Counted from the first letter of the stretch, positions 6,048-62,533 are shown. The stretch is 64,000 nt of DNA from Eubacteriales bacterium (GCA_031551135.1 JAVBOA010000026.1:26683-90682); one strand, 5' to 3'. Notes: generated from the sequence alone by a model not told the origin. Program-made: numbers and translations.

Positions 6048-6159
6048 TACTATTTTCATTTTGATAAGTAGAAAAAAATTTTTCACAGCGGAGCGTTTCG
6101 CGCAATGTTTCTAGCGCGAAATGAAATATTTTTTTCTGTCCTTTATAATGAAAATAGTA
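6048..6159 (+). repeat. TIR-hairpin element, full length (112 bp), orientation A
   Basis: TACTATTTTCATT ... AATGAAAATAGTA termini; about 38-nt inverted arms; central hairpin TTTCGCGC-N10-GCGCGAAA (6096-6121). Near-identical to the copy at 62422-62533. Confidence 0.95.
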
Positions 6160-6162
6160 TAA

Positions 6163-6200
6163 TACTATTTTCATTATGGAAGATAAAAAAATAAAAAAAC
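6163..6200 (-). repeat. truncated TIR-hairpin element (left arm only), abutting the previous copy
   Basis: TACTATTTTCATTATGGAAGATAAAAAAA matches the orientation-B left arm. It sits 3 nt after the preceding copy and runs into the 5' UTR of the sensor kinase. Confidence 0.6.
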
Positions 6201-6209
6201 GGTGATACG

Positions 6210-9200
6210 ATGACTGACGACGAAAATAAATTATTTACGAATTTTACAGAATTAATGGCGCTGGACAATATTTTGCTATTTGAACTTTATCCGGAAAAAG
6301 AACAATTAATTCTGCATAAGAGTGATTTTACAAAATTTCTTTTAGGGTTTGAAAATAAAACCACTATAAATAATTGCATGTCTTTTTTTAATAAAGTAAT
6401 TCATCCGGATGATTTTGGAAAGATAGACAATGCAATTAAGAATATTTCCTTGGGAAGAGAAGTAAGACATACGCAATGCCGGATAAGGCATTTTGAATTG
6501 AAAGAATGGACTGAAGTAATGATTTCCTCAAATAGGGATTCATCTAGTCTCGGTCTGCATGTTTTAGGGATAATCCGGGTGTTATCCGAAGATGAAATAT
6601 ACAGCATGAAATACAAAACGGATTTAAAACTAAAAATGATTTTGGATTATAATCCGACAATTTGTATTATTTTCGATTCAGAAGGAAAAATACTTGATAT
6701 TAATAAAGCGGCTTGTATTTTGTTCAATCTGCCAAATAAACAAAGTTTTATTGAAAAATTTCTCGAGCTTTTTCCTGAGCTTCAGCCGGATGGAAAGAAT
6801 TCTATTGAAAAAATGAGATATTTAATTTCTGAATCGGTCAAAGGCAAAAAAATAGTTGTTGACTGGCTGCATCAAGATCTGCTTAATAGACCGATTGAAA
6901 CAAAAGTCACTTTGGTACCGGTTAAGGCCAATAATAGCTCCTATGTTTTGGCATATATTGAAGATATGCGCATGACGCACCAAATGATCAGAGCGATAAA
7001 AGAGCTAAAAACCGAAATGGAAAATTCCAAGGGCTTGATGCTCGATTCGTCGCCTCTGGCTTGTGATATGTGGGACGATGAAATGAATATGATTTTTTGC
7101 AATAAATCGGCGTATGAACTTTTCGGATTATCGAGTATCGAAGAATATTGTGAAAATCACAGACTTTTATCGGCTGAATATCAGGAAAACGGCCGTCTTT
7201 CTTCGGAATATGCGCCCGAGATGGTATCGATTGCGATAAAAAACAGCGAGCATACTTTTAATTGGCTGCACAGAAAAATCACCGGCGAAATTATTCCGGC
7301 AAGAGTTACGTTAAAAAAAGTTAATTACGGAGATTCTTTCAGAATAATCGGTTATATATATGATTTAAGGGCGGAGATGCAAGCGAATAAGCAAGCGTTT
7401 GAGGCTGACCAAAGAAGTAAATTGATGACAGAAATAAATCCGATTACGACTACTATCTGGAATAGTAAATGTGAACTTATAGATTGTAATGCGTCTGCTC
7501 TAAAAATGTTTAGAGTCGAAAGCATAGAAGAGCTGCAGGACAATTTTATGAAATTCTTTCCGGAATATCAGCCGGACGGCAGGCTAAGCGAAGTTGCTTT
7601 TAAAGAGAACATGAATTTTGCTAATCTTGAAGGTAAAAGAACATTGGAAAGTGTTCATAAAGACTCAAAAGGAAATTTATTTTTAACGGAAGTTATTATG
7701 TTTCGTGTGAAATTAATGGATGAAGAATGTATTGTTGCATATACAAGGGATATCAGCGCCGAACGTGAAATTATTTCTGTAATGAAAAAGGCGAAAGAGG
7801 CCGCAGAGCAAGGCGAAAAAGCTAAATCCAGCTTTTTGGCAAATATGAGCCATGAAATCCGCACACCGATGAATGCCATAATCGGAATGTCCGAATTGCT
7901 TTTGCATGAGGAGCTTAGCGAAAAACAACATCGTTTCGTTCAAGATATTAACGTTTCATCAACAAGCCTTTTATCGATTATCAATGATATTTTGGATTTT
8001 TCTAAAATAGAGGCCGGCAAATTGGAGCTTGTTAAAAACAATTATTCGATTCGCAGTCTTTTGGATAATATTGCTTCGAGTATGAGAGTTGTTGCAGAAA
8101 AGAAAAATCTAGAATTTATTTCGTCAATTTCGGATGAACTGCCAATATGTCTTTACGGCGACGATGTGAAATTAAGACAGATTTTAACGAATTTATTAAG
8201 CAATGCAGTGAAATTTACAAAATATGGTTTTGTTTCTTTCCATGCGGATATTTCTAATAACGATGGCGAAGAATTGGTTTTTAGTATAAAAGACAGCGGA
8301 ATTGGCATAAAAGCAGAGAATTTTAACAGATTGTTTAATCCTTTTGAGCAATTGGACAAAGTTGAAAATAAAAATGTTGAAGGCACGGGGCTTGGCCTTG
8401 TAATAACTAAGCGGATAATTGAAATGATGAACGGCGGCATTGAGATGATTTCCGAATACGGAAAAGGCACAGAGTTTATCGTCAGACTTCCGCTTATTAT
8501 CGGTGACGTTTCTAAAATGAACAGTGATATAAAAGATTTCAGATTTGTAAAAGCCAAGAATGCAGAAATTTTAGTGGTAGACGATGTCGAAGCGAATCTG
8601 CGGGTGATTTCGGCGCTTTTAGAAATGTCGGGAATTATTTGCGATACTGCAAGCAGCGGTTCGGACGGAATCGAAAAGATTAAAAATAAAGATTATGATA
8701 TTGTATTTATGGATCATATGATGCCCGAAATGGACGGAATAGAAACATGCAGGAAAATACGTTCTTTGGGCGGAAAATTCGAAAATATAAAAATTATTGC
8801 ACTCACGGCGAATGCTGTTTCCGGCGCGCGCGAAACAATGCTCGAAGCCGGAATGGATGACTTTTTGTCAAAACCCATTGATAAAATGTTATTAAATGGA
8901 ATACTTATTAAACATTTGCCAAACTCTAAAATAGATGAGATACAGGAAATCGAAGAAAATTTCATTGGTGAGCTTTCGGATATTCTTAAAAAAGTTAAGT
9001 TAATTAAGGGAATCGACCTTGAATATGCGCTTTCGCTTATGGGAAATAATCAAAAAATTTATGAAAATGCTTTAGCTTTCTTTTTAAAGCAATATGAAAA
9101 TACTAGGAAGAAATTAGTTCAGCATCTCGAAAGCTTAGATTCAAAGGCTTTTGCAGTAGAAATTCACGGTGCGAAAGGTTATTTAAGAACATTGGGGGCT

Positions 9201-9578
9201 ATAAAATTATCAGACGAAGCCAAGAATATGGAAATGGCGGCTAAACAAGGCGATATTGGATTTTGTTTAGAGCATTTTGACAGTTTCCTTAGAGGCTATC
9301 AAAAAATGAATGATGATTTGTCGGATGTTTTTCTGAGTACAGATTGTGTTTCTTTAGAAACCGTGGAGATTGATGAGCTGGTTAATGCGCTTGAAAAAGT
9401 AAAAGATGACCTTGAAAATTATCTTTTGGATGCTCCCGAAGAAATTGTATCGAGATATATAAAAATGACATTTGGAGAAAAAATAGATACCAAGCTTTCT
9501 GAGCTAATGGATAAAATTTCGCAAATGGATTATTTTGGAGCTATTGAAACCGTTGACGAAATATTATTACTTGATTGA
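6210..9578 (+). CDS. hybrid sensor histidine kinase (multi-PAS, HisKA, HATPase, REC, HPt)
   Basis: 1122 aa. H-box SHEIRTPMNAI; N/G boxes LLSNAVKFT and GTGLGLVITK; receiver DIVFMDHMMPEMDG; C-terminal HPt-like EIHGAKGYL. The N-terminal ~530 aa carry repeated PAS-like modules. No TM segment is obvious. Confidence 0.9.
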   Translation: MTDDENKLFTNFTELMALDNILLFELYPEKEQLILHKSDFTKFLLGFENKTTINNCMSFFNKVIHPDDFGKIDNAIKNISLGREVRHTQCRIRHFELKEWTEVMISSNRDSSSLGLHVLGIIRVLSEDEIYSMKYKTDLKLKMILDYNPTICIIFDSEGKILDINKAACILFNLPNKQSFIEKFLELFPELQPDGKNSIEKMRYLISESVKGKKIVVDWLHQDLLNRPIETKVTLVPVKANNSSYVLAYIEDMRMTHQMIRAIKELKTEMENSKGLMLDSSPLACDMWDDEMNMIFCNKSAYELFGLSSIEEYCENHRLLSAEYQENGRLSSEYAPEMVSIAIKNSEHTFNWLHRKITGEIIPARVTLKKVNYGDSFRIIGYIYDLRAEMQANKQAFEADQRSKLMTEINPITTTIWNSKCELIDCNASALKMFRVESIEELQDNFMKFFPEYQPDGRLSEVAFKENMNFANLEGKRTLESVHKDSKGNLFLTEVIMFRVKLMDEECIVAYTRDISAEREIISVMKKAKEAAEQGEKAKSSFLANMSHEIRTPMNAIIGMSELLLHEELSEKQHRFVQDINVSSTSLLSIINDILDFSKIEAGKLELVKNNYSIRSLLDNIASSMRVVAEKKNLEFISSISDELPICLYGDDVKLRQILTNLLSNAVKFTKYGFVSFHADISNNDGEELVFSIKDSGIGIKAENFNRLFNPFEQLDKVENKNVEGTGLGLVITKRIIEMMNGGIEMISEYGKGTEFIVRLPLIIGDVSKMNSDIKDFRFVKAKNAEILVVDDVEANLRVISALLEMSGIICDTASSGSDGIEKIKNKDYDIVFMDHMMPEMDGIETCRKIRSLGGKFENIKIIALTANAVSGARETMLEAGMDDFLSKPIDKMLLNGILIKHLPNSKIDEIQEIEENFIGELSDILKKVKLIKGIDLEYALSLMGNNQKIYENALAFFLKQYENTRKKLVQHLESLDSKAFAVEIHGAKGYLRTLGAIKLSDEAKNMEMAAKQGDIGFCLEHFDSFLRGYQKMNDDLSDVFLSTDCVSLETVEIDELVNALEKVKDDLENYLLDAPEEIVSRYIKMTFGEKIDTKLSELMDKISQMDYFGAIETVDEILLLD

Positions 9579-9589
9579 GGTGGAAATTG

Positions 9590-10648
9590 ATGAAGAAGGA
9601 ACTTTTTTTTAGGACGGCTGACTTACTTAGTATCAAAGAATTGGATAATGGACCAATTTATAAAAATGAATTGACACAGTATTTTTTCTATCTTGATACG
9701 TATCTTACTATTGCGGAAGAATTTTTTGTCTCGTTTGATTTAGATAGTATTGCAAATAAGACTGATTTATTTATAGAGGGGCTAAATAAACAGATTTATG
9801 CTTTGAAAAAATTGAATCTGGAAAAATTGATGGAACAAACAGAAAATCTGATAAAACTCATAGAAAATAAGGAGTTTGAAAAATCGAAAGAGGAATACAA
9901 AAAATTGGCCATTGATAACGAAGAATTGTATTCTAAAATAAATAACGCAAATATAAGTAAGGGTATTGATGGAGAAGTTATTAAATATAACGAAACTATC
10001 AGAAAAAATTCAGTTTTTTATAAAAAAGTTCAGAAATATAAAACTTTGCCTCTGGAAACATTGGATAAAGGAAAAGTAGAGGAAATGCTTAAACTGGTAA
10101 ATGATTTTCAGCTTTTGGAAGCAGGGCATGTTCTGAGCACTGTAATGCAAAAAAAATACGGCGAAAAAATTGATTATTTATTAATTGAGCTGAAACACAA
10201 TTTTGATAATTTCGAGGCTGCCGCCGCACAAAAAACTCTGACAAAAATTGCGTTTGCTTCAGCCGATAAAAATGCAGTGGCCACAGAAAAGAAAAGCATA
10301 CTTGCGATAGATGACAATGTCGGGGTTTTAAATACGTTAAAGGCCATGCTGAAAGATTATTATGAATTATTTTGTATTCCGAATCCCAATGCAGTTTTTA
10401 AATTTTTGGAAAATAGAGAAAGCTTAGACATGATTCTGCTTGATATAGAAATGCCTGAAATGGATGGCTATGAGCTTTTGACATTAATCAAAAAATATAC
10501 TAAATATGAAAAAATACCGGTGATTTTTCTAACCGGAAATGCGACCAAAGACCATTTATTAAAAGCAGTTGAAATGTCCGCTGTTGATTTTATCAGTAAG
10601 CCGGTAGATTTGGAGACACTTTTATCAAAAATAAAAAAACATATATAA
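9590..10648 (+). CDS. response-regulator receiver protein with uncharacterised helical N-terminal domain
   Basis: C-terminal REC (ILAIDDN, LLDIEMPEMDG, FLTGN, SKPV). The N-terminal ~230 aa have no recognisable output domain. ATG 9590 follows GAGGTGG and overlaps the kinase stop. Confidence 0.8.
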   Translation: MKKELFFRTADLLSIKELDNGPIYKNELTQYFFYLDTYLTIAEEFFVSFDLDSIANKTDLFIEGLNKQIYALKKLNLEKLMEQTENLIKLIENKEFEKSKEEYKKLAIDNEELYSKINNANISKGIDGEVIKYNETIRKNSVFYKKVQKYKTLPLETLDKGKVEEMLKLVNDFQLLEAGHVLSTVMQKKYGEKIDYLLIELKHNFDNFEAAAAQKTLTKIAFASADKNAVATEKKSILAIDDNVGVLNTLKAMLKDYYELFCIPNPNAVFKFLENRESLDMILLDIEMPEMDGYELLTLIKKYTKYEKIPVIFLTGNATKDHLLKAVEMSAVDFISKPVDLETLLSKIKKHI

Positions 10649-10673
10649 TCTACCTATCTTATTTTATTATAGA

Positions 10674-10702
10674 TTGACAATTACGAAATTATTTAGTAGA
10701 AT
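10674..10702 (+). promoter_or_regulatory. sigma-A type promoter of the malonate decarboxylase operon
   Basis: TTGACA - 17 nt - TAGAAT. Confidence 0.6.
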
Positions 10703-10706
10703 AATT

Positions 10707-10780
10707 GTGAGAGATTTGAGAGATATATTTAGAAATTTGAGACAAATTTAATAATTTAGAGTGTATGAGGATACAGTAAG
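10707..10780 (+). promoter_or_regulatory. leader with periodic (G/U)AG repeats, candidate HutP-family binding array
   Basis: TTTGAGA 10715, TTTAGA 10728, TTTGAGA 10736, TTTAGAG 10755, then GAG 10767, CAG 10774 and AAG 10778. The register is about 9-10 nt, and the last triplets lie in the 5' arm of the terminator. Confidence 0.5.
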
Positions 10781-10819
10781 CCATGTTTGGTCATGGTTTT
10801 TGTGTCCTTTTTTTATTTT
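10768..10819 (+). terminator. leader (attenuator) terminator upstream of the mad operon
   Basis: AGGATAC..GCCATG TTTGGT CATGG..GTGTCCT extended stem followed by TTTTTTTATTTT. It sits between the promoter and the first RBS (AAAGGAGGTG). Confidence 0.65.
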
Positions 10820-10838
10820 CGCTAAAGGAGGTGAATAT

Positions 10839-11138
10839 ATGCTGGCAGGACAGGACATATCGTTTGCACAATCAATTGTAATTTCTTTATCCGGCATGGC
10901 AATCGTAATGCTGGAATTGGTATTATTGGCTTTAGTAATTATTGCATTATCCAGAATAATAGCTAAATTTGAAAAAAAAGATACACCGCAAAAAGCAGTT
11001 GCACCGGCACCGGCGCAAGTAGTAACAGCGATTCATGATGAAAATGATGATGAATTGGCGGCAGTAATGGTAGCTGTTTGTGAAGAATCAAAAATTCCGC
11101 TGAACGAAATCGTATTTAAGAATATTCAAAAATTATAA
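10839..11138 (+). CDS. OadG-like small membrane subunit of Na+-translocating decarboxylase
   Basis: ATG 10839 follows AAAGGAGGTG; the track ORF from 10761 would read through the terminator. One TM helix plus an Ala/Pro stretch; it lies next to the biotin carrier and beta-subunit genes. Confidence 0.6.
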   Translation: MLAGQDISFAQSIVISLSGMAIVMLELVLLALVIIALSRIIAKFEKKDTPQKAVAPAPAQVVTAIHDENDDELAAVMVAVCEESKIPLNEIVFKNIQKL

Positions 11139-11158
11139 AATAAAAGAGGAGAATTGAA

Positions 11159-11548
11159 ATGAAATATATCGTAAAAGTTAATGGAAAAGCATATGAAGTT
11201 GAGATAGAAAGAAGCACAGCAGGAGGATATGCAGCACCACAAATGGCAGCACCGGCATACGCAGCACCACAAATGGCTGCACCTGCATATGCTGCACCGA
11301 CACCTGTACATACACCTGCGCCTGCTGCATCCGCCGGAGCAGAAGTAAGAAGTCCGCTTGCCGGAAATATATTCAATATTTTAGTAAATGTCGGAGACAG
11401 AGTTGCTTTCGGTCAAAATTTAATTGTTATTGAAGCAATGAAAATGGAAAATGAAGTTGTTTCTCCATGTGAGGGAGTTATTAAACAAATTTTAGTATCA
11501 AAAGGCAGTGTTGTTGACGCAGATGATGTTTTGATAGTTATCCAATAG
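11159..11548 (+). CDS. biotin carboxyl carrier protein of malonate decarboxylase (MadF-like)
   Basis: C-terminal biotinyl domain with EAMKMENE. The Ala/Pro linker contains a tandem AAPQMAAPAY duplication. Confidence 0.85.
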   Translation: MKYIVKVNGKAYEVEIERSTAGGYAAPQMAAPAYAAPQMAAPAYAAPTPVHTPAPAASAGAEVRSPLAGNIFNILVNVGDRVAFGQNLIVIEAMKMENEVVSPCEGVIKQILVSKGSVVDADDVLIVIQ

Positions 11549-11577
11549 AATTACAAAATTATAAAGAGGTGAAATAA

Positions 11578-12723
11578 GTGAACTTTATTGATGTAATTGT
11601 TGAAACTGCCAAAGCGTCGGGTTTTGCGGCTATGACTTCTCAGCAGGGTATAATGCTGTTGGTTTCTTTCGCGCTTCTGTACCTCGCGATTGTAAAAAAA
11701 TTCGAGCCATTATTACTTCTTCCGATTTCTTTCGGAATGCTTTTAGCAAATTTGCCTTTGGCAGGGCTAATGTATGAATCGACTGAACATTGGTATGACT
11801 CCGGTGTTCTGAGAAATATTTATTATGGTGTAAAATCCGGAATTTTTCCATGTTTAATATTTATGGCTGTTGGTGCGATGTCGGATTTCGGTCCGCTTAT
11901 TGCAAATCCGATAAGTTTATTATTGGGAGCGGCAGCTCAATTAGGAATTTATATGGCGTTTACTATTGCTAATAATATAGGAATTTTCACGCCCGAACAA
12001 GCGGCGGCTATTGGAATAATCGGAGGCGCAGACGGTCCGACCGCTATTTTTCTGGCCTCAAAGATCGCGCCGGAGCTTCTGGGGCCGATTGCCGTCGCGG
12101 CGTATTCATATATGGCGCTGATACCATTAATTCAGCCGCCGATTATGAGATTGCTCACAACTAAAAAAGAACGTGAAGTAAGAATGGATCAATTGAGAAA
12201 AGTAAGTAAAACTGAAAAAATTATGTTTCCTATTTTTGTTACGGTAATTTGTTCTTTAATGCTTCCATCTGTTGCACCATTGATTGGTATGCTTATGTTG
12301 GGAAATCTTTTTAAAGAATCCGGAGTTGTTGACAGGCTCAGCGACACGGCTCAAAACGCTTTGTGTAATATCGTTACAATACTTCTCGGTGTGACTGTCG
12401 GCGCGACAGCAGACGGAAAAGTATTCCTTCAAGTTCAAACTCTTGCTATCGTTGCGCTTGGACTTATCGCATTTGCTTTTTCTACAGCCGGTGGTGTATT
12501 ATTAGGTAAACTATTATATATTATTACCAAGGGAAAAGTAAATCCGTTAATCGGCTCCGCCGGTGTTTCGGCAGTTCCGATGGCAGCGCGTGTTTCTCAA
12601 GTAGAAGGCAAGAGGGCAAATCCGACAAACTTTTTATTGATGCACGCTATGGGACCGAATGTTGCCGGTGTTATTGGGTCGGCGGTTGCCGCAGGATTCT
12701 TCTTATTGCTTTTCTCTAAATAA
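11578..12723 (+). CDS. madB: Na+-translocating carboxybiotin decarboxylase beta subunit (OadB/GcdB/MadB family)
   Basis: 381-aa polytopic membrane protein with [14 protein letters not shown] and [13 protein letters not shown] motifs typical of the beta-subunit family. Confidence 0.9.
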
Positions 12724-12774
12724 TATATAATTCTCCTAATTATTGCGGAGAGAATATTTAGAGAAGGTGGAAGT

Positions 12775-13221
12775 ATGGACTCGATTTTTAACCCGAATTG
12801 TGAAGGAATAGGTTCAACGGTCGGCTATGCGGCAATGCTTTTGGCTATGACCAGAACTTTAATGGACGAAGATATTTTAAAAAAAATTATAGAAAAAGAA
12901 AAAAAATTGAAATTTGTTGTGACAGAAATGGGTGGAAAATCTAACGGAGATTTTCAGGAAAAAATAAGCAAAGCGGTTTTGGGCGCAAGCCTGAACGGCG
13001 GTATTATAAAAAAAGACGCGGCGAGTATTCACGCTGTTTTGCATGCCGCAGAGGAAGCGAAACGCGGAGTTTTGATTAATATGACTTCGATTACTCAAGT
13101 TGCGCTGAAAATAGCCATAGTGCGTGATGAAACATGGATAGCCGTGGCGATGTTTGGCGAGTCGTTTATTCACCCTGTTACAAATCATGAACGTTGTGGG
13201 CTTGGGATAATGCATATTTAA
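12775..13221 (+). CDS. hutP: HutP-family RNA-binding antiterminator-like protein
   Basis: 148 aa, the same size as B. subtilis HutP. The C-terminus ...AVAMFGESFIHPVTNHERCGLGIMHI parallels HutP ...AVSLYGTIGAPIKGLEHETFGVGINHI, and LHAAEEA parallels LYHATMEA. Confidence 0.75.
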   Translation: MDSIFNPNCEGIGSTVGYAAMLLAMTRTLMDEDILKKIIEKEKKLKFVVTEMGGKSNGDFQEKISKAVLGASLNGGIIKKDAASIHAVLHAAEEAKRGVLINMTSITQVALKIAIVRDETWIAVAMFGESFIHPVTNHERCGLGIMHI

Positions 13222-13290
13222 AGCGGTTTGTTTTTTTTGAAAAATATCATTTGAATAAGAAATGAACCGCATATGATGAGGAGGTATCAG

Positions 13291-14955
13291 ATGCAGAACC
13301 AAAAACGTTGGAACACTTTGAAAAGAGATTATGTAGATAGAATCAGATCGGCGATACCGTATGTTAAGTTTGGAAAAAACGTTGACGCGAAAGATGCGGT
13401 CGCGCTTTTGGAAACTGTGATAAAACCTTTTGATAAAGTAAATATAGAGGGCGATAACCAAAAACAGGCAGATTTTTTGGCAGAATGTCTTTGCAAAGTG
13501 AATAAAGAAAAAATAAATAATCTTCATATAGTACAGTCGGCGGTTTCCTTGAGCAGCCATTTGGAGCTTTTTGAAAAAGGAATTGCAAAAAAACTTGACT
13601 TTTCTTTTTCCGGACCGCAGTCGCAGAAAGTCGCGAAACTATTAAAAGAAGGAAAATTGGAGCTTGGCGCGATACATACATATATGGAGCTTTACGCCAG
13701 ATATTTTATGGACTTAACGCCGCGTGTTGCTTTAGTAGCCGCATATCAGGCAGATAGGCAAGGTAATTTATATACAGGCTTTAATACCGAAGATTCGCCG
13801 GTTGTTATTGAAGCTACGAAATTTAAAAATGGAATAATTATTGCACAAGTAAATGAAATTGTTGACCGGCTTCCTAGGGTTGATATTCCTGCGGATTGGG
13901 TCGATTTTGTAATACAATCTCCAAAACCGTTTTATGTTGAACCGCTTTTTACAAGAGACCCGTATTTAATCAGCGATGCGCAGATTTTGCGTGCTATGAT
14001 GGCGATTAAAGGAATTTATGCGGAATACGGCGTACAAAGATTGAATCACGGTATTGGTTTTGATACGGCGGCTATCGAACTTTTGCTTCCGACTTATGGT
14101 GAAGAACTGGGTTTGAAAGGCAAAATTTGTTCTTATTTCGCTTTGAATCCGCATCCTTCATTAATTCCGGCTATCGAAAGCGGCTGGGTAAAATCTATTC
14201 ATTGCTTCGGCGGTGAATTGGGAATGGAAGAATATATTCGCAACCGTACAGATATTTTCTTTGTCGGGCCGGATGACAGTCTGCGTTCGAATCGTGCTTA
14301 TTCGCAAATGGCAGGGCATTACGCTTTGGATATGTTTATCGGCGGAACTCTGCAAATTGATGAATTCGGAAACAGCTCTACGGCAACCGCCGACAGAATA
14401 GCAGGATTTGGCGGAGCGCCGAATATGGGAAGCGATTCGAAAGGAAGACGGCATTCCACAGCCGCGTGGTTAAAATGCGGAAGTGAATACGGTATGCAAA
14501 AGCAATTGATTGGCGAAATGCCGCGCGGAAAACGCCTTGTTGTTCAATTGCAGGAGACCTTCAGAGAAAAATTAGCGCCGGGTTTTGTAGAAAAATTAGA
14601 TGCATGGGAATTGGCTGAAAATTCCGGATTAGATATTCCGCCGGTAATGATTTACGGTGATGATGTTACTCATATCGTAACCGAAGAGGGAATCGCGTAT
14701 CTTATTAAATGCGAAAGCCTTGAGGAACGAACTGCGGCAATCAGGGCAGTTGCCGGATTTACAGATGTCGGATTAAAAGCGGATTCTTTGAAAACAAAAG
14801 AATTACGAAAAAAAGGAATTGTTAAAACTCCGGAAGATTTAGATATTGATATAACACGTGCTAACCGAAACCTTTTGGCCGCCAAAAACGTAAGAGAATT
14901 GGTCAAATGGTCCGGCGGTCTTTATAATCCGCCAGCGCGTTTCAGAAACTGGTAA
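13291..14955 (+). CDS. mdcA: malonate decarboxylase alpha subunit (acetyl-S-ACP:malonate ACP transferase)
   Basis: About 554 aa. The EGDNQKQADFL motif and overall length match MdcA/MadA. ATG 13291 follows AGGAGG. Confidence 0.9.
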   Translation: MQNQKRWNTLKRDYVDRIRSAIPYVKFGKNVDAKDAVALLETVIKPFDKVNIEGDNQKQADFLAECLCKVNKEKINNLHIVQSAVSLSSHLELFEKGIAKKLDFSFSGPQSQKVAKLLKEGKLELGAIHTYMELYARYFMDLTPRVALVAAYQADRQGNLYTGFNTEDSPVVIEATKFKNGIIIAQVNEIVDRLPRVDIPADWVDFVIQSPKPFYVEPLFTRDPYLISDAQILRAMMAIKGIYAEYGVQRLNHGIGFDTAAIELLLPTYGEELGLKGKICSYFALNPHPSLIPAIESGWVKSIHCFGGELGMEEYIRNRTDIFFVGPDDSLRSNRAYSQMAGHYALDMFIGGTLQIDEFGNSSTATADRIAGFGGAPNMGSDSKGRRHSTAAWLKCGSEYGMQKQLIGEMPRGKRLVVQLQETFREKLAPGFVEKLDAWELAENSGLDIPPVMIYGDDVTHIVTEEGIAYLIKCESLEERTAAIRAVAGFTDVGLKADSLKTKELRKKGIVKTPEDLDIDITRANRNLLAAKNVRELVKWSGGLYNPPARFRNW

Positions 14956-14969
14956 GGAGGGTTCAAGAA

Positions 14970-15296
14970 ATGGCGTTAAATGAAATTACTTTTAGTTTTA
15001 CACCGCAAAGTAAATTTATTACTATAGATAAAGAATGGTCACATAACGGCGTTGTTGGGTCGGGAGATTTAGAGGTACTGATTCGTTTTAAAGAACAAAA
15101 AGGACTTGTTAATGTAAAAATTAATACACCTGTGAGCGGATTCGATGACGTTTGGAAAAAAGTAATCAGCAAAACTCTTTCAGAAATTAATTTGGGAAAC
15201 GCTGACATAGAAATTAATGATAATAACGCTACTCCTTTTATAGTGGCAATGCGCATAAGGCAAGGGATTATTGAGGCAAAAGGAGGCGCTGTTTAA
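14970..15296 (+). CDS. mdcC: malonate decarboxylase acyl carrier protein (delta subunit)
   Basis: 108 aa. GVVGSGDLEVL surrounds the prosthetic-group serine, as in MdcC/CitD. Confidence 0.85.
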   Translation: MALNEITFSFTPQSKFITIDKEWSHNGVVGSGDLEVLIRFKEQKGLVNVKINTPVSGFDDVWKKVISKTLSEINLGNADIEINDNNATPFIVAMRIRQGIIEAKGGAV

Positions 15297-16261
15297 TGAT
15301 TAAATGGAAAGATGCTCAGAATTTGAGCTTTTATGAATCGTCGGCAAGAACAAGAGCGTTTAATCTTCCTGACGAAAATACTTTTACAGAGCTTTTAGGC
15401 CCTGATAATTATGTTACTTCTCCGCATTTGCCAGTACTTGGCGAAGCTGTATCTTTTGATGACGGCGTTGTAACCGGTGTTGGCATGATTGGTAAAAGAC
15501 CTGTTTTTATAATTTCGCAAGAAGGAAAATTTATCGGCGGTGCTGTCGGCGAAGTTGGCGGCGCAAAGATGGTTGGGATTTTCAAGCTTGCACTTCAAGC
15601 TTACGATAAAATAAAAGCAAAATATCCGAATGATTATGAAAGCCGCATTCCGGCTGTAATTATATCTTTTGAAACAGGCGGTGTGCGCCTGCACGAAGCT
15701 AACGCCGGACTTTTGGCACATGCCGAAGTTATGGAACTCATACAATATTGCCGTGGAAAAATCCCTGTAGTTTCGCTTATTGGCAGTAAGCTTGGATGTT
15801 TTGGCGGAATGGGATTTGTTTCGGTTGCAACCGATGTTGTAATAATGAGCGAATTAGGAAGAATCGGTTTGACCGGTCCGGAAGTTATTGAAGAAGTAAT
15901 GGGTAAAAAAGTATTTGATTCGTCGGATAGAGCTATGATTTACCGTACTACGGGCGGCAAGCATAAATATATACTCGGAGATTGCAATTATCTTGTTTCT
16001 GATACAATCGGCTCTTTCAGAGAACAATTAATTGATTTATTAAAAATGTCTTATGCGGATATCGCTGCACATAGAATAATCGGAACTTTTGATTTGGTTC
16101 AGGAACAGCTTGGACTTGTAGATTTAGCCGTAAGGCTTGCCCCAAAAGATTCTAAAGATGTTTGGGCGTATTTCGGAAATCCAAATCCGGATATTATTCA
16201 AGACCAATCCTACGAAGAATTTATTTCAAGCGCAAAAGTAAGACAAAGGGGGACAGTGTAA
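15296..16261 (+). CDS. mdcD: malonate decarboxylase beta subunit (carboxyltransferase, MdcD/MadC)
   Basis: 321-aa carboxyltransferase-fold protein. The ATGA overlap with mdcC indicates translational coupling. Confidence 0.85.
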   Translation: MIKWKDAQNLSFYESSARTRAFNLPDENTFTELLGPDNYVTSPHLPVLGEAVSFDDGVVTGVGMIGKRPVFIISQEGKFIGGAVGEVGGAKMVGIFKLALQAYDKIKAKYPNDYESRIPAVIISFETGGVRLHEANAGLLAHAEVMELIQYCRGKIPVVSLIGSKLGCFGGMGFVSVATDVVIMSELGRIGLTGPEVIEEVMGKKVFDSSDRAMIYRTTGGKHKYILGDCNYLVSDTIGSFREQLIDLLKMSYADIAAHRIIGTFDLVQEQLGLVDLAVRLAPKDSKDVWAYFGNPNPDIIQDQSYEEFISSAKVRQRGTV

Positions 16262-17127
16262 TGGCAGGTTTAGTTGGAAAAGGCAGAGATGCTATTGCAA
16301 TGATTGTTGACCCAAATAGTTTTAACGAAAATATTATCGGAAATTATTCTCAAGACCCAAACCTTGGGCCGGGAGCGGTTATCGGTACGGCTTTGATAAA
16401 TGGAAAAAATGCAACAATTATTTCGAATGATGCGATGGCTAAAAATAAAAAATTCCCTCTTGTTTATTCGGGCGTTATTGGCTTGGAAGAAGGCTATAAA
16501 ATGGCTATAGCTGTTTACAAAACAATCGAGGCAGACGAAAATTCACCTGTAAAGCGACCACTGGTATTGATTGTAGATACACCCGGCAATGGTTTGGGAA
16601 AAATCGAAGAAATTTTCGGTATGAATAAATCTACAGGCTCGTATCAATTGGCTTTGACGGAGGCTAGGCAAAAAGGACATCCCGTAATTGCGGTTATAAT
16701 CGGAAGAGCGATAAGCGGCGCATTTTTATGCCACGGATTGCAGGCTGACCATATTATTTCGCTTTCGAAGGATTTCGGAACAATGATTCATGTTATGCCG
16801 CTTGTTGGTATTGCGCGCATCACAAAAATGGATATTGAAACATTAGAAAACCTTGCAAAAGTCAATCCGGTTTTTGCCGCCGGTTCAGATTTCTTTTATA
16901 AACTCGGCGGAGTTGAAGAAATAATCGAAAAAATCGAAGATATTAGAAATATTGTGATTAAGCATATAAACGAGGTTTATGCTTTGACAGCATCGGGAAG
17001 CTTAGAAAAAACAGGACCTTGCAGCCGCGGCGATTTGGGCAATCAAAGAGGCGGACGGAAAACAAGACCTGAGGTACTCAAAAAAATGTACGCTCAATTT
17101 GATGAAATTGAGTCGAAATATTTGTAA
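16261..17127 (+). CDS. mdcE: malonate decarboxylase gamma subunit (carboxyltransferase, MdcE/MadD)
   Basis: ATG 16261 overlaps the mdcD stop (TAATG). The 33-codon extension in the track ORF lies inside mdcD. Carboxyltransferase-like (VDTPGNG). Confidence 0.8.
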   Translation: MAGLVGKGRDAIAMIVDPNSFNENIIGNYSQDPNLGPGAVIGTALINGKNATIISNDAMAKNKKFPLVYSGVIGLEEGYKMAIAVYKTIEADENSPVKRPLVLIVDTPGNGLGKIEEIFGMNKSTGSYQLALTEARQKGHPVIAVIIGRAISGAFLCHGLQADHIISLSKDFGTMIHVMPLVGIARITKMDIETLENLAKVNPVFAAGSDFFYKLGGVEEIIEKIEDIRNIVIKHINEVYALTASGSLEKTGPCSRGDLGNQRGGRKTRPEVLKKMYAQFDEIESKYL

Positions 17128-17156
17128 TACTATTTACCTTTAGGCGGGAAATAGTA
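17128..17156. repeat. TIR-hairpin element, minimal form (29 bp, two termini only)
   Basis: TACTATTTACCTTT AGGC GGGAAATAGTA starts immediately after the mdcE TAA. Confidence 0.8.
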
Positions 17157-17177
17157 TGAAAATCAGAAAACGGCTTA

Positions 17178-17219
17178 TACTATTTTCAATATAAAGAATA
17201 GAAAAAAATGGAAATAGTA
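17178..17219 (-). repeat. TIR-hairpin element, short form (42 bp)
   Basis: TACTATTTTCAATATAAAGAATAGAAAAAAATGGAAATAGTA. Confidence 0.9.
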
Positions 17220-17254
17220 TTAAACGCCGTTTTCGATTCTTTGGAGTGATATAT

Positions 17255-18331
17255 ATGAATCCAATTGATGATTTAAAATTTTTTTTGGAAAATTGCGAAA
17301 CGGCACCGAATTTTTCGGAAATGCCGAGAAGAAGCTTGAGTGATAAGGGAGTTGACGGGCCTACAGGTGCTCATGTTATAGAAGAAATCCATACACCGTT
17401 TAATTTGGCGTATATCAGTATTACAACGGGAACAACGGCTTTCCAGAATATCGCCGGTGTCACGCACAACGAGATTTCCGACAGAATTTCAGCTTCGATT
17501 AAAGCTCTTGAGCTTTCCGGCGTAAAACGGGGAGATAAAATTTTAATCACATACCCTCCGCTTGTTAATGTCTTTTCAAAAGAAGCTTTGGAAATATACG
17601 GCGTTGAGCATTTTTTTCTGGAGCGTTCGTGCCGTGATGCATTACTTTTGGCATTGGCCGAAAAAAAGCCGAATATCGTAATCGGTGAATCTAGCTTTTT
17701 GCGCGCATCTATTGAGGATGCAAAAAAACTAGATATCATCGATTTAATCCCAAAAGGGATTGTTTTTTTGGCGGCAGGAACTCCGCTTGATTTGGATTTT
17801 GTTCCTGCGGCGGAAAATTTAGTCGGCGGCGTGGTGCACGACCTTTATGGATGTCAGGAATTTGGCTGGCTTGCGGTTGACGGTATTCCTTTGCGAAAAG
17901 ATATTTCTCTTGTTCCGGAAAAAGGTGAGAATTTTCATTTAGTTGCCGGCGGACTGCCTACAGGCGATTGCTTTCCGAAAATCGATAACGGGCATATTTG
18001 CAATATAGACGGCAAAATTATCACCTATTCAAGAATCCGTACAAACGAAGAATTAGAATTGACTGTTTTGGAGTCTACAGCAAAATCGATTGATACTTTG
18101 TATCGTTTGGCGAAAACTATTTTGCGCATAAAAGGAAAAATTGTCCGGATATCAAAAAATGTTGTTCTGAATAGCGAAAAAACTGTGCTTTCGCTTGCAA
18201 ATTATGGCGAAAACGAAGGCTTTATTATCTCCGGAAAAGATAAAACCCTTATGTTTGACACTTTATTAGAAGCACAAATGGCGTATCAATCGGAAAACAA
18301 AACTGATCCGACTTGGCTTAAAAGGAGGTAA
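17255..18331 (+). CDS. adenylate-forming ligase-like protein, candidate ACP-SH:acetate ligase (MadH-like)
   Basis: ITTGTTAFQ resembles the AMP-binding T(S)GTTG motif. Its position between the carboxyltransferase and holo-ACP synthesis genes mirrors madH in the Malonomonas-type cluster. Confidence 0.5.
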   Translation: MNPIDDLKFFLENCETAPNFSEMPRRSLSDKGVDGPTGAHVIEEIHTPFNLAYISITTGTTAFQNIAGVTHNEISDRISASIKALELSGVKRGDKILITYPPLVNVFSKEALEIYGVEHFFLERSCRDALLLALAEKKPNIVIGESSFLRASIEDAKKLDIIDLIPKGIVFLAAGTPLDLDFVPAAENLVGGVVHDLYGCQEFGWLAVDGIPLRKDISLVPEKGENFHLVAGGLPTGDCFPKIDNGHICNIDGKIITYSRIRTNEELELTVLESTAKSIDTLYRLAKTILRIKGKIVRISKNVVLNSEKTVLSLANYGENEGFIISGKDKTLMFDTLLEAQMAYQSENKTDPTWLKRR

Positions 18332-18333
18332 AA

Positions 18334-19815
18334 ATGTTCAAAAGGCATAATCTTTTGGAGATAAATAACGAAGGAAGAGAATTTGCGCTTAATCAAGCTT
18401 TGGAATTAAATCAAAAAATTTCTCCCGAGTTATTGAGAGAGCTGATTGTAGATTCGAAAACCCCCGGCATAGTTAAGCGTCAGAACAGCGTTAGAGAAGG
18501 ATTTATCGAAATCGGATTTTCTTCTTGGAAATATATTGATGGCCGAAGATTGAGAGCTGAGTCATTTGTACCGCTTTCGGCGGTTGAGAAAGTCATTACT
18601 CCTTTTGAATTAATGAATTACCGTGAAGACGGCAATTTTATTTTAAATGAATTAGTAAAAATAGCTGATGATTTAAATATTTCTCTTGGAGTATTCGGGT
18701 CGGCGGCGATGCAAATTTATTCAAAAAAGAATTATATGAACGAAAATTCTGATTATGATATTTATATTTCGTGTAAAAAAAGAAGGGATATTGAATTATT
18801 CTACGAAAATATAAAAAATAACGAACGTTTGAAAAATGTAAAATTAGATATAGAACTTGAGATAGCGAATAATTACTCTGTGAAACTCATTGAAATTTTT
18901 TCGGGTCAGAAAACCGCATTGGCAAAAGGAATTTGGGATGCAAGATTATTTGATATCGAGGATATAATAAATGGTTTTTCCTATGATATCCGTGAAATTG
19001 TATCGAGAAACGCCGTTCGGGCTTTGCTTTATGAAGTGGCGGTGACTCCAAAACCCGGGCTTGTGGATATGAACAATAACGGTTCGCATAAAGATATGGA
19101 TTTTTTTAGATTTATCGATAGCGCAACCGTATTAACGCCGTATTTTGCAAAATTATTTGATTCGGGTGTAAAAAACAGGGATAAACATGAATTATTCGAA
19201 AAAATCAGATACATTGGAATGACTGCAGAGGACGCGATGAAAAAAGCTACAGACGGCGTAAATACTCATAAGGGCGCGATATTTTCTTTGGGTGTTTTTT
19301 GTGCGGCTGTCGGATTTTTTTATGCTGAAAAAAATAAATATAATACTGATGAAGTTTTTGAAATTTGCGGCTCTATGAGCGAGCTAATGCTGAATGATGA
19401 GTTGAACTCGATTACTCTTGAAAACGCAAAAACTTTTGGGGAATTTTTATATATAAATCACGGCATAAGCGGAATCAGAGGAGAAGTCGCTTCGGGGTTC
19501 AAAACGATTCGTGAAATCGGACTTCCGATTTTAAAGGATTTATTAAGCAAAGGCTATTCTATCAATGATGCTTCATTGCTCGTGCTTCTGAATTATATTG
19601 CAGAGACTACCGATACTAATATGATAAAAAGAGGCGGCTTCGAAATTAATGAAGAAGCTAAGTGGAAAGCAAAAGATATTCTGGAAAATCCCTATAAAAA
19701 GCTTATTTTTGATTTAGATAAATATTTTATTGAAAGAAATTTAAGTCCCGGCGGCTGCGCCGATTTATTAAGCGTAACGCTTATGGCGTATTTTATGGAA
19801 AAAGAAGCTTTATAA
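18334..19815 (+). CDS. fused phosphoribosyl-dephospho-CoA transferase (MdcG) / triphosphoribosyl-dephospho-CoA synthase (MdcB/CitG)
   Basis: The N-terminal ~200 aa carry MdcG-like GVFGSAAMQ...SDYDIYIS...KLDIELEI. The C-terminal ~285 aa carry the CitG/MdcB signature VAVTPKPGLVDMNNNGSHKDMDF. Confidence 0.8.
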   Translation: MFKRHNLLEINNEGREFALNQALELNQKISPELLRELIVDSKTPGIVKRQNSVREGFIEIGFSSWKYIDGRRLRAESFVPLSAVEKVITPFELMNYREDGNFILNELVKIADDLNISLGVFGSAAMQIYSKKNYMNENSDYDIYISCKKRRDIELFYENIKNNERLKNVKLDIELEIANNYSVKLIEIFSGQKTALAKGIWDARLFDIEDIINGFSYDIREIVSRNAVRALLYEVAVTPKPGLVDMNNNGSHKDMDFFRFIDSATVLTPYFAKLFDSGVKNRDKHELFEKIRYIGMTAEDAMKKATDGVNTHKGAIFSLGVFCAAVGFFYAEKNKYNTDEVFEICGSMSELMLNDELNSITLENAKTFGEFLYINHGISGIRGEVASGFKTIREIGLPILKDLLSKGYSINDASLLVLLNYIAETTDTNMIKRGGFEINEEAKWKAKDILENPYKKLIFDLDKYFIERNLSPGGCADLLSVTLMAYFMEKEAL

Positions 19816-21714: not shown

Positions 21715-21825
21715 TACGATTTCCCTTCTAAAGAATAGAAAAAAATATTTCATTCCGCGCTTGAAGCGTTGCGCGGAACGCTTCGCTGTGAAAATTTTTT
21801 TCTACACATTAAATGGGAAATAGTA
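21715..21825 (-). repeat. TIR-hairpin element, full length (111 bp), orientation B
   Basis: Near-identical to 30374-30484. Central hairpin TTCCGCGC ... GCGCGGAA. Confidence 0.95.
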
Positions 21826-22894: not shown

Positions 22895-22986
22895 TACTCG
22901 AAAATTAGAAATTCACACCCATTCAGCGCCTTTAAGCAGAAAGTGGGTGTGAATATTTTTTTCTATCCTTTATAATGAAAATAGTA
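22895..22986 (+). repeat. TIR-hairpin element variant (92 bp) with a different central hairpin
   Basis: The right arm ATATTTTTTTCTATCCTTTATAATGAAAATAGTA is conserved. The central stem is replaced by TTCACACCCA ... TGGGTGTGAA. Confidence 0.8.
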
Positions 22987-24904: not shown

Positions 24905-25185
24905 AAAATCCTCCTAACATTAATTACGAAATATGTTAAAATGTATTATTTTTTTCGGAAAAAATTCGATAAAAATATGTCGAGTGTTTTTTTAATTTCT
25001 ATATAATAACATTATAGCGAATCAAGAAAATTACGCAAGTTTTGTTCGGCGGGTAGAAGCGAAATTTAATGGGTTTAGGATTTATACAAAAATCAAAAAT
25101 ATTGAATTGAAATATACTTGGTGTAAAATATATAAATGAGTCGAAAAAAATCAGAATATTGTTAGATTAAGATTTATTACATTTA

Positions 25186-25214
25186 TTGATTAAAATTGCG
25201 CATTTTGCTATAAT
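25186..25214 (+). promoter_or_regulatory. sigma-A type promoter in an ORF-free region
   Basis: TTGATT - 17 nt - TATAAT, about 440 nt upstream of the LCP gene. Confidence 0.45.
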
Positions 25215-44182: not shown

Positions 44183-44722
44183 ATGAAAATCTATATTGAT
44201 TTATTTTTAACTTTTTTTAAAATCGGAATTTTTACCGTTGGCGGCGGATACGCAATGATTCCGATTATTCAAAATGAAACGGTAGACCAAAAAAAATGGC
44301 TGAACGAAGAGGAATTTGCCGATTTCGCAACATTGTCACAGTCACTTCCCGGTGTAATTGCGATAAATTTATCGACCTGTGTCGGCAAAAAAATACGAGG
44401 ATTTAAAGGTGCAATAGTTTCGGTGCTTGGAGTAACATTGCCGTCTTTGATGATTATTATGGCTATTGCCGCGATTTATAATGAATTAATAAAAAATACG
44501 ATTTTGCAAAATGCGTTCAAGGGCGTTCGTGCAACGGTTGTTGCATTAATTTTCTACGCCGTTCTGAGACTGGCGAAATCTTCTGTGCAGTCAAAATTTC
44601 AATTATTTATCGCAATTTCTGCATTTATATTAGTTTTCTTTTTGAAAATTTCACCGCCGTATATTATACTTTTTTCTGCTATACTCAGCATTTTACTAAG
44701 ACCGAAAATCAAGGGTATCTAA
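44183..44722 (+). CDS. chrA: chromate transporter family protein (short ChrA, first of a pair)
   Basis: 179 aa with the FTVGGGYAMIP motif of the CHR family. Confidence 0.85.
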   Translation: MKIYIDLFLTFFKIGIFTVGGGYAMIPIIQNETVDQKKWLNEEEFADFATLSQSLPGVIAINLSTCVGKKIRGFKGAIVSVLGVTLPSLMIIMAIAAIYNELIKNTILQNAFKGVRATVVALIFYAVLRLAKSSVQSKFQLFIAISAFILVFFLKISPPYIILFSAILSILLRPKIKGI

Positions 44723-44763
44723 TGCTATTTACATTTTTTCTAGCTTTTAGAGTGAAAATAGTA
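44723..44763. repeat. TIR-hairpin element, short form (41 bp)
   Basis: TGCTATTTACATTTTTTCTAGCTTTTAGAGTGAAAATAGTA lies directly after the chrA TAA, between the two chrA halves. Confidence 0.8.
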
Positions 44764-44783
44764 TAAAAATTTAAGGAGAAATT

Positions 44784-45326
44784 ATGCATATTTTAGCTTT
44801 GCTTTTTATTGTTTTTTTTAAGATCGGCTTATTCAGTTTTGGCGGCGGATATGCGATGATTTCGCTTTTGCGTATAGAATGTTTGAATAATAATTTTATT
44901 ACGGCGAAAGAATTTTCTGATATTGTAGCACTGAGTCAAGTTACACCCGGACCGATAGCGGTTAATTTGGCGACTTTTGTCGGCTTCAAACAAATGGGAG
45001 TACTTGGTTCTTGCGTTGCAACTTTGGCTGTTATTCTGCCTTCAATAATACTAGCGTTGAGTCTTTATTCGATTATAAAAAAATTTAATGATTCGGATAT
45101 TATAAAGAATGCTTTTTACGGTTTAAAGCCTGCGGTTATTGGATTAATTCTCGTAGCGGCAGTAAATATAGGAATGGAAGAATTTTATATACAAGGGGAT
45201 TTTGAATTTATCTCAATTTTTATTGCTATTATTGCATTTATTTTATCTTACAAATTTAAAGTCAATCCGATATATTTGATAATCGCTTCCGCAATTGCCG
45301 GAATTATTGTTTTTTCAATATTATAA
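44784..45326 (+). CDS. chrA: chromate transporter family protein (short ChrA, second of a pair)
   Basis: 180 aa with the FSFGGGYAMIS motif. Confidence 0.85.
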   Translation: MHILALLFIVFFKIGLFSFGGGYAMISLLRIECLNNNFITAKEFSDIVALSQVTPGPIAVNLATFVGFKQMGVLGSCVATLAVILPSIILALSLYSIIKKFNDSDIIKNAFYGLKPAVIGLILVAAVNIGMEEFYIQGDFEFISIFIAIIAFILSYKFKVNPIYLIIASAIAGIIVFSIL

Positions 45327-54169: not shown

Positions 54170-54280
54170 TACTATTTTCATTATAAAGGATAGAAAAAAA
54201 TATTTCATTTCGCGCTTGAAGCCTGCGCGAAACGCTTCGCTGTGAAAGATTTTTTTCTACTTATCAAAATGAAAATAGTA
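54170..54280 (-). repeat. TIR-hairpin element, full length (111 bp), orientation B
   Basis: Reverse complement of the 6048 copy apart from the loop and a few bases. Hairpin TTTCGCGC ... GCGCGAAA. Confidence 0.95.
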
Positions 54281-61590: not shown

Positions 61591-61605
61591 ATAGTAATAC
61601 TATTT
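61591..61605. repeat. back-to-back TIR termini without element body
   Basis: ATAGTA A TACTATTT resembles the tail-to-head junction seen at 6154-6170. Confidence 0.4.
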
Positions 61606-61630
61606 ATAAATTTTAAGCAGGTGAAAAATT

Positions 61631-62302
61631 ATGGCTGAGTTAGGAATTATTTTAGCACTACTTATTTCTTTGTATGCTCAATATAAGGTTAGCTCAAATT
61701 TCAACAAATTTAGTAAAGTGAAATCCGAAAAAGGTTATACCGGCGCAGAAGTTGCAAGAATATTATTAGAAAAAAACGGAATCAGCAACGTTACGGTTAC
61801 AAAAGTTGCAGGCTCTCTGACAGACCATTTTGACCCGAGGAGCAATATTATAAGATTATCAGAGCCGGTTTATGACAGTACATCAATTGCGGCTATCGCT
61901 GTGGCGGCGCACGAAACGGGACACGCAATCCAGCACGATACGGGATATATTCCGCTGAACATCAGAAGCGGCATTTTTCCGGTAGCATCATTCGGTTCAA
62001 AATTGGGTATTTATTTAGTTATGATTGGCTTAGTAATCGGAAGCTTGGGAAATGTTTTTGTAAGCATTGGTATTTTGCTTTTTGCATTTTATGTAGCATT
62101 CAGTTTAATTACATTGCCGGTAGAGTTTAATGCCTCGAGCCGCGCGCTAAATATCCTGGAAGAGAATTACATTATATCGAATTCCGAAGTTTCTTCTGCA
62201 AAAAAAGTTTTATCAGCCGCCGCTTTGACATATGTGGCAGCAGCGCTGTCAGCAGTTTTTACATTATTGAGATATTTAAGCATGGCTTCCAGAAGACGCT
62301 AA
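61631..62302 (+). CDS. membrane zinc metallopeptidase (Zn_peptidase_2-like)
   Basis: HExxH in AAHETGHAIQH, flanked by TM helices; 223 aa. Confidence 0.8.
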   Translation: MAELGIILALLISLYAQYKVSSNFNKFSKVKSEKGYTGAEVARILLEKNGISNVTVTKVAGSLTDHFDPRSNIIRLSEPVYDSTSIAAIAVAAHETGHAIQHDTGYIPLNIRSGIFPVASFGSKLGIYLVMIGLVIGSLGNVFVSIGILLFAFYVAFSLITLPVEFNASSRALNILEENYIISNSEVSSAKKVLSAAALTYVAAALSAVFTLLRYLSMASRRR

Positions 62303-62421
62303 TAAAATTATTACAAAGGCTTCAATGATTTTTGGAGTCTTTTGTTTATGTATTATTGTTTTAAAGAAATAAAATTTTTCAGACAAATTCATTATTGTAA
62401 TCGTATTTTTATTATAGGTTA

Positions 62422-62533
62422 TACTATTTTCATTTTGATAAGTAGAAAAAAATTTTTCACAGCGGAGCGTTTCGCGCAATGTTTCTAGCGCGAAATGAAA
62501 TATTTTTTTCTACCCTTTATATTGAAAATAGTA
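62422..62533 (+). repeat. TIR-hairpin element, full length (112 bp), orientation A
   Basis: Same central hairpin and loop as the 6048 copy. Confidence 0.95.

Follow-up and report, generated by a model that had tools for sequence, protein, structure and literature searches.

The stretch of DNA considered here, referred to below as the window, is a 64-kb segment (64,000 nucleotides, one strand) of the genome of an Eubacteriales bacterium (GCA_031551135.1, JAVBOA010000026.1:26683-90682). Its housekeeping genes include hisS, aspS, rplS, lexA, purH behind a ZTP riboswitch, rpsO-pnp, groES/EL and a malonate decarboxylase cluster. The closest relatives of its PNPase, PurH and ClpC proteins are found in uncultured Clostridiales metagenome-assembled genomes (MAGs), the named relatives (Tyzzerella, Anaeropeptidivorans, [Clostridium] colinum, Defluviitalea and Epulopiscium) show 69-77% identity, and the host represents an uncultured Clostridia lineage near Anaerotignaceae/Defluviitaleaceae. 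Scattered between these genes lies a dense family of short palindromic repeats bounded by terminal inverted repeats (TIRs), which is the subject of this work. [quoted passage not shown]

A preliminary description of the window had listed seven full copies of 111-112 bp, together with several shorter variants. The positions and orientations of all seven were verified, and an nhmmer profile built from them recovered each one with E = 5e-35 to 1e-32. The element was defined as running from TACTA to TAGTA, the points at which the similarity among the full copies (81-98% pairwise identity) ends sharply and gives way to unrelated flanks. The census, which combined the profile, arm searches and inspection of the window, yielded 22 traces: seven full copies, two 92-bp variants, five forms of 40-42 bp, one of 54 bp, two minimal forms (29 and 33 bp) and about five solo or partial ends, so that the shorter variants were found as well. 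They are distributed as follows, with the bases flanking the left and right ends given where both ends are present.

6048-6159 (+): full copy of sub-family A, 112 bp; TSD TAA at 6045-6047 and 6160-6162
6163-6185 (-): solo end of the right-arm type, abutting the full copy at 6048-6159
17128-17156 (no strand assigned): minimal 29-bp hairpin form; the left-flank TAA is the mdcE stop; flanks mismatched, TAA/TGA
17178-17219 (-): short 42-bp form made of the right arm, up to and including the A-run, and an 11-nt TIR; TSD TTA/TTA
21715-21825 (-): full copy of sub-family B, 111 bp; TSD TGA/TGA
22895-22986 (+): 92-bp variant whose core hairpin is a different one, ATTCACACCCA...TGGGTGTGAAT, with only TACT remaining at the left end; TSD TTA/TTA
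25485-25545 (-): decayed partial copy, left arm and part of the core
25585-25624 (-): short 40-bp form; TSD TGA/TGA
29034-29074 (+): short 41-bp form whose left TIR is degenerate; flanks mismatched, AAA/TAA; the next gene starts about 20 nt after its end
30374-30484 (-): full copy, 111 bp, sub-family B; TSD TTA/TTA
34279-34320 (-): short 42-bp form; TSD TTA/TTA
37654-37764 (+): full copy, 111 bp, sub-family A'; TSD TTA/TTA
37794: solo or partial end (weak)
38945-38966 (+): solo right end; a gene starts 23 nt downstream
40375-40466 (-): 92-bp variant with a shortened core; flanks mismatched, TTA/TCG
40543-40653 (+): full copy, 111 bp, sub-family A'; TSD TCA/TCA
42042-42095 (+): truncated 54-bp form, right arm of sub-family B; flanks mismatched, TTA/TAC
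42160-42182 (+): solo right end, with a GC hairpin and T-run immediately before it (42132-42155)
44723-44763 (+): short 41-bp form in the chrA1-chrA2 spacer; TSD TAA/TAA, the left TAA being the chrA1 stop codon
51464-51496 (+): minimal 33-bp form; TSD TAA/TAA, the left TAA being the stop codon of a GGDEF gene
54170-54280 (-): full copy, 111 bp, sub-family C, after the pnp terminator; TSD TAA/TAA; the corresponding sister-genome spacer lacks a copy
62422-62533 (+): full copy of sub-family A, 112 bp; TSD TTA/TTA; 16 nt separate its end from the gene that follows

The architecture previously outlined for the family (13-nt termini, arms rich in A7 and T7 runs and an asymmetric GC-rich core) holds. 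The TIRs, TACTATTTTCATT on the left and AATGAAAATAGTA on the right, are perfect in most copies, and the terminal 13-mer occurs, with up to two mismatches, at 40 sites, compared with 9.5 +/- 2.9 in shuffled sequences, none of 100 shuffles having reached 40. In the full-copy consensus, TACTATTTTCATTTTGATAAGTAGAAAAAAATTTTTCACAGCGGAGCGTTTCGCGCAATGCTTCAAGCGCGAAATGAAATATTTTTTTCTATCCTTTATAATGAAAATAGTA, imperfect arms of about 34-38 nt run into the A7 and T7 runs and enclose a core that combines an 8-bp GC hairpin with an invariant unpaired CACAGCG(G/A)AGCG bulge. In every sub-family, positions 14-22 consistently distinguish the left arm from the right, which gives the element a defined polarity. Units range from 29 to 112 bp, too short for protein coding. 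Among the shorter ones, those beginning at 17178, 25585, 34279 and 44723 share a common junction, in which the right arm continues through the A-run and is followed directly by TGAAAATAGTA, and that at 29034 has the same layout except for its degenerate left TIR.

The high density and intergenic placement attributed to the family (at least 20 traces) were likewise confirmed. Altogether, the traces amount to 1,436 bp and account for 2.2% of the window, or 15.7% of the DNA between its genes, and they occupy 16 of its 42 intergenic regions of at least 40 bp. All 22 are intergenic and none falls in coding sequence; as coding sequence makes up 86% of the window, the chance of all 16 host loci being intergenic is about 3e-14. 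NCBIfam and Pfam scans of some 60 open reading frames (ORFs) of the window, including all large ones, detected no transposase, in agreement with what had been noted at first.

The key observation, which had not been made in the preliminary description, is that the copies are flanked by a 3-bp direct duplication, always of the form T-N-A. The three bases are identical on both sides in 13 of the 17 two-ended copies, including all seven full ones. In the first 13 two-ended copies considered, the flanking 3-mers were equal in 11 at offset 0; the count of 13 in 17 was obtained after four two-ended copies were added and two element ends were shifted by one base. On the plus strand, the duplications of the full copies read TAA, TGA, TTA, TTA, TCA, TAA and TTA, the middle base varying from copy to copy and agreeing on both sides. 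The matching of this middle base alone has a binomial probability of about 4e-4 (computed for 12 of 17), and the flanks show T at position -3 in 25 of 26 cases and A at position -1 in 26 of 26. Duplications of other lengths or offsets were rejected, as they match only through the invariant terminal bases (AT or TA) and are thus uninformative. A direct T-N-A duplication is the footprint of a staggered transposase cut, which indicates that the copies are insertion products, that is, genuine transposition products of the MITE type, and not merely conserved palindromes. In three short or minimal copies, the left-flank TAA coincides with the stop codon of the upstream gene (mdcE, chrA1 and the GGDEF gene). 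This is not a significant excess (three of 17 against a roughly estimated one expected), and such insertions are harmless, since the TNA duplication regenerates the stop codon.

Further support came from material outside the window. Contigs of two Logan assemblies of the same organism (SRR23967709 and SRR23967707) are 100% identical to it. Four of the ten Logan contig ends within the window (6065, 42068, 62503 and 62505) fall inside copies, which make up only 2.2% of the sequence. The contigs span short and minimal copies (44723 and 51464) at 100% identity and break in two full copies and in the 54-bp form, as a short-read assembler is expected to do when it meets a true multi-copy repeat. Among other genomes, the nearest is a sister JGI MAG, whose PNPase, ClpC and PurH are 88%, 87% and 74% identical to those of the window. 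In the 27.4 kb of this sister genome available on three contigs, neither a copy nor an arm was found, although about seven loci would be expected at the density of the window (P ~0.001). In particular, its pnp-M16 spacer has no copy, while the counterpart in the window is filled at 54170-54280.

Sub-families are 95-98% identical internally, which points to amplification of the 111-bp form in at least three or four bursts, and the TIRs of both ends differ between sub-families in concert, a pattern that would be expected from an altered transposase specificity or a changed master copy.

The earlier impression that the family had not been described rested on lack of recognition, and it is now backed by searches of Rfam, plasmids, phages, JGI metagenomes and IMG/VR, on which the claim of novelty rests. 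In Rfam, the best match over two copies reached 25 bits, where at least 52 would have been needed, the hits at permissive E-values being sub-threshold noise, and only tRNA-Asp and the ZTP riboswitch passed the gathering score within the window. Exact-pattern scans of JGI metagenomes and of IMG/VR with the core and the right arm gave no match, and blastn against plasmids and phages returned none. Among the matches listed for the core 19-mer in a species-representative genome collection there were at least 13 loci, all attributable to chance and covering only the pattern itself.

All these observations can be integrated in a scheme of non-autonomous, cut-and-paste transposition in which a DDE-type transposase encoded elsewhere in the genome would bind the 11-13-bp TIRs, excise the element and insert it at T-N-A by means of a 3-nt staggered cut, whose repair would leave T-N-A on either side. 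Internal deletions of the 111-bp form would yield the 92-, 54-, 40-42- and 29-33-bp derivatives, several of which retain only TACT at one end, and copies would persist only where they cause little harm, in intergenic DNA and sometimes exactly at a TAA stop codon. The 42-bp mini-element was probably mobile itself and amplified in its own right, as suggested by the existence of four 40-42-bp forms with one junction, matching duplications and mutual divergence. The MITE interpretation proposed from the outset has thus been upheld and strengthened by the T-N-A duplication, the unrelated flanks, the sub-families and the absence of the element from the 27.4 kb of the sister genome. Of the traits of prokaryotic MITEs, small size (below about 500 bp) and lack of coding capacity, TIRs, a TSD, and many dispersed copies with unrelated flanks are seen here.

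Regarding the nature of the helper, the IS1031 group of the IS5 family is reported to prefer 5'-TNA-3' targets and to generate an exclusive 3-bp direct repeat (PMC12016507), and insertion at TNA with a 3-bp direct repeat is precisely what the copies display. By analogy, this group may be tentatively put forward as the most likely kind of helper, without the odds being in its favour. A more doubtful proposal is that the helper belongs to an uncatalogued transposase lineage, as the mismatch between the TA-ended 13-bp TIRs with their strict T-N-A duplication and the published IS1031 ends could suggest, and that the 40-42-bp derivatives, which hold little beyond two 11-13-bp TIRs around a spacer of 16-20 nt, would still be competent for transposition.

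Several findings weigh against the interpretation as transposase-mobilised MITEs, or against parts of it. The flanks differ in four of the 17 two-ended copies, and no precise empty site could be aligned, the intergenic DNA of the sister genome being too diverged. The inverted repeats begin with TACTA, in contrast to the GA of ISLrh (GAACCTGTCTAGTATCT), a member of the IS1031 group (one published inverted repeat compared; PMC12016507), so that the assignment of the helper to a family stays provisional. No helper insertion sequence (IS) with these termini was found in the window or in about 3 kb more of the same genome. Finally, compensatory changes in the inner hairpin, outside the TIRs (columns 51/72 and 53/70), hint at a constraint beyond transposase binding.

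This last point leads to another conceivable explanation, which we regard as unlikely: that the repeats are structured elements selected by the host as terminators, mRNA-stabilising hairpins or protein-binding sites, in the manner of SPRITE or REP sequences, with mobility being secondary or already gone. The single long hairpin into which each strand folds has a folding energy of -34 to -40 kcal/mol, with z-scores from -5.4 to -7.6, a transcript running through a copy would form a hairpin of about -36 kcal/mol, and 98% of cells are paired across the copies. Compensatory double changes are found at four pairs, two of which belong to the TIR and the other two to the inner hairpin; the latter hint at some constraint on hairpin formation, in a small sample, but only two lineages stand behind the changes. 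The core, in which A7 is followed by a GC stem of 8 bp (with a loop of 10 nt), then by 8 nt and T7, has the layout of a two-way intrinsic terminator and might act as a weak one; nevertheless, a consensus terminator scan did not call it (the loop has 10 nt and the T-run begins 8 nt past the GC stem), and pnp retains its own terminator upstream of the copy. Several copies lie 16-50 nt from gene starts or exactly at stop codons, and within operons only short forms occur (between mdcE and the next gene, and between chrA1 and chrA2), the full copies lying between transcription units; this fits selection against the hairpin core inside operons, in small numbers. Selection by the host is harder to reconcile with the fact that both strands fold about equally well and that full copies, present in divergent, convergent and tandem gene contexts alike, are oriented 2:2 relative to transcription when located between co-directional genes; a strand-specific RNA role is therefore unsupported. 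Nor did any Rfam family match, and at the corresponding genes the sister species has no element. Two specific candidates were discarded. A strand-specific RNA based on a further hairpin, GGAGCGTT/AATGTTTC, which G-U pairs preserve, was dropped because the preference amounts to merely 1.6-4.5 kcal/mol, both strands fold and the orientations are mixed. An outward promoter at the right end, which holds ATGAAA-17-TATAAT (AATAAT in some copies), was rejected since its match of 9-10 of 12 positions is weak and occurs at background frequency in this AT-rich DNA; the right end faces gene starts in seven of 19 cases, with no bias.

Three other accounts deserve comment. If the repeats were IS630/Tc1-mariner-type MITEs, like Correia or RUP, the terminal TA would be the duplicated target and the element proper would start from CTATTTTC. 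It is true that TA begins and ends every copy, that 5'-TA-3' termini are found in most bacterial MITEs and that RUP targets TA (PMC2229807), but this terminal TA is invariant and hence uninformative about duplication, and the account leaves unexplained why 13 of the 17 copies have three identical bases outside it, with a varying middle base. As the terminal TA is part of the element and the duplicated T-N-A lies outside, a TA-duplicating mechanism (IS630, Correia, RUP) is contradicted, and we consider this origin very unlikely. Spread of a REP/REPIN-type palindrome by a RAYT (IS200/IS605-like Y1) transposase is still less probable: the short, dense intergenic palindromes and a GTAG tetranucleotide in the left arm (AAGTAGAAAAAAA) would agree with it, whereas REPs measure 20-40 bp and have no target duplication, in contrast to units of 111 bp with 13-nt TIRs and a 3-bp TSD, and the window encodes no Y1 transposase. 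Lastly, an origin of the copies by local segmental duplication, or as an artefact of assembly, is hardly credible. Nothing beyond their clustering in one window speaks for it; the flanks show no relationship as far as the 3-bp duplication itself, and independent assemblies from two sequencing runs are identical across the short copies and broken inside longer ones, as expected for a true multi-copy repeat.

Some additional features of the window lie close to the repeats. At 22895-22986 and 42132-42182, other GC-rich hairpins replace the standard core (ATTCACACCCA...TGGGTGTGAAT and GTGGCGTGTGTTTTCACACGCCGC, respectively); the latter was recognised as a canonical terminator, with the right-arm-like TTTTTATCTTTTGGAATGAAAATAGTA after it, and it may be that the right arm was joined to, or derived from, ordinary terminators. 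An unlisted small ORF of about 78 aa at 38063-38299 (+) is preceded by a strong promoter-like sequence, TTGACA-17-TATAGT (38008-38036), and followed by a terminator (38309-38336). Its TAA stop is immediately followed by TACTATTT, and a second TACTATT lies past the terminator; both may be remnants of further element ends. At 40672-42016, element copies bracket a small divergent module made of an HTH_3 regulator (minus strand), a 102-aa ORF belonging to no family and a Mor-family activator, which may be a phage- or Mu-like regulatory remnant. Two element traces are also present in the 750-bp spacer (24905-25655) upstream of the cobU-cobS-cobC operon, in which neither a cobalamin riboswitch nor any other Rfam family was detected, even at E <= 0.1.

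The neighbouring loci provided further observations. The region 6210-19815 resembles a cluster for a biotin-dependent, membrane-bound malonate decarboxylase of the Na+-pumping type, with genes for OAD-gamma, a biotin carrier, OAD-beta, mdcA, an acyl carrier protein (ACP), two carboxyltransferase subunits and an MdcG-CitG fusion. It also includes a HutP-like RNA-binding regulator and a 361-aa member (17246-18331) with no Pfam family, and a 1,122-aa hybrid histidine kinase and a response regulator are encoded upstream. The ZTP (pfl) riboswitch upstream of purH (42275-42370, plus strand; 50.1 bits against a gathering score of 39) is preceded by a promoter-like TTGACA-17-TAATAT at 42240-42268. In the sister MAG, about 245 nt upstream of purH are readable (sister contig 1-400) and contain a terminator and a promoter, with no Rfam match; its purH seems to lack the riboswitch. 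In the window, a split chromate-transporter pair, chrA1/chrA2 (44183-45326), is located between purH and a gene for a protein with a metallo-beta-lactamase (MBL) fold, while in the sister MAG the MBL gene directly follows purH (sister contig 1799-1832); the chrA pair thus represents an insertion or deletion difference between the genomes.

As for its significance, the family provides an annotatable repeat for an uncultured Clostridia lineage and is a practical cause of short-read assembly fragmentation in this organism. Judging from their positions, copies near gene starts and in two operons (malonate decarboxylase and chrA) may shape expression. If the 40-42-bp derivatives were truly mobile and competent for transposition, they would rank with the smallest mobile DNA units that bacteria are known to have, and the 42-bp forms would represent a minimal substrate of very small size for a DDE transposase. 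This is a new family of a familiar element type, and the current understanding of bacterial repeats is unchanged by it; a bacterial family duplicating T-N-A is nonetheless a useful addition, RUP, the best-known Firmicutes MITE checked, being of the TA type.

Dense MITE families are familiar in bacterial genomes; Correia elements duplicate TA, and the eukaryotic Tourist elements duplicate TAA/TTA. The likeness to Correia and to REP sequences suggested in the preliminary description survives only in part, as a general resemblance to Correia (and RUP) in size, folding and placement, given that the duplication is T-N-A instead of TA and that the repeats are not REP-like. The Correia elements of Neisseria (CREE/NEMIS) share a size of about 100-155 bp, long TIRs, a terminal TA and AT-richness, as well as a dense intergenic distribution, often just upstream of genes, size variants with or without an internal segment, and long transcript hairpins (PMC2229807; PMC10969869). 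They are set apart, by description, by TIRs of 24-26 bp and unrelated sequence compared with 13 nt here, by features such as an IHF site, proven promoters and RNase III sites, and by a host of a different phylum. RUP, the pneumococcal element mobilised by IS630-Spn1, is another AT-rich, TIR-bounded and tightly folded Firmicutes MITE, of 107 bp and with about 110 copies per genome (PMC2229807; PMC3049150); however, it targets TA and has TIRs like those of IS630-Spn1, in contrast to the TNA duplication of the present family (PMC2229807).

SPRITE sequences also exhibit an interspersed terminator-like hairpin core between A-rich and T-rich runs, but their TIRs are merely AAAA/TTTT, they have no demonstrable TSD and they are enriched at the 3' ends of genes (PMC3049150), whereas the present family has 13-nt TIRs, a clear TSD and a core hairpin placed 8 nt from the T-run. 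REP/BIME/REPIN sequences with RAYT are abundant intergenic palindromes as well; REPs are described (PMC3733652) as units of 20-40 bp with a GTAG/CGTC tag, without TIR or TSD and linked to a Y1 transposase, and none of these traits fits. The MITEs derived from the IS1031 group of the IS5 family, whose eukaryotic counterpart is Tourist (PIF/Harbinger), are alike in TNA insertion, an exclusive 3-bp repeat and a short, TIR-bounded, non-coding sequence (PMC12016507). They differ in that their inverted repeats start with GA or GG (ISLrh, GAACCTGTCTAGTATCT, the one published repeat compared), as opposed to the TACTATTTTC start seen here, and no IS5-type transposase was found in the window or in about 3 kb more of its genome. 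The features considered general to MITEs, that is, a length below 200 bp, TIRs, a terminal TA, AT-richness, a TSD and a long transcript stem-loop (PMC2229807; PMC10969869), are all present in this family.

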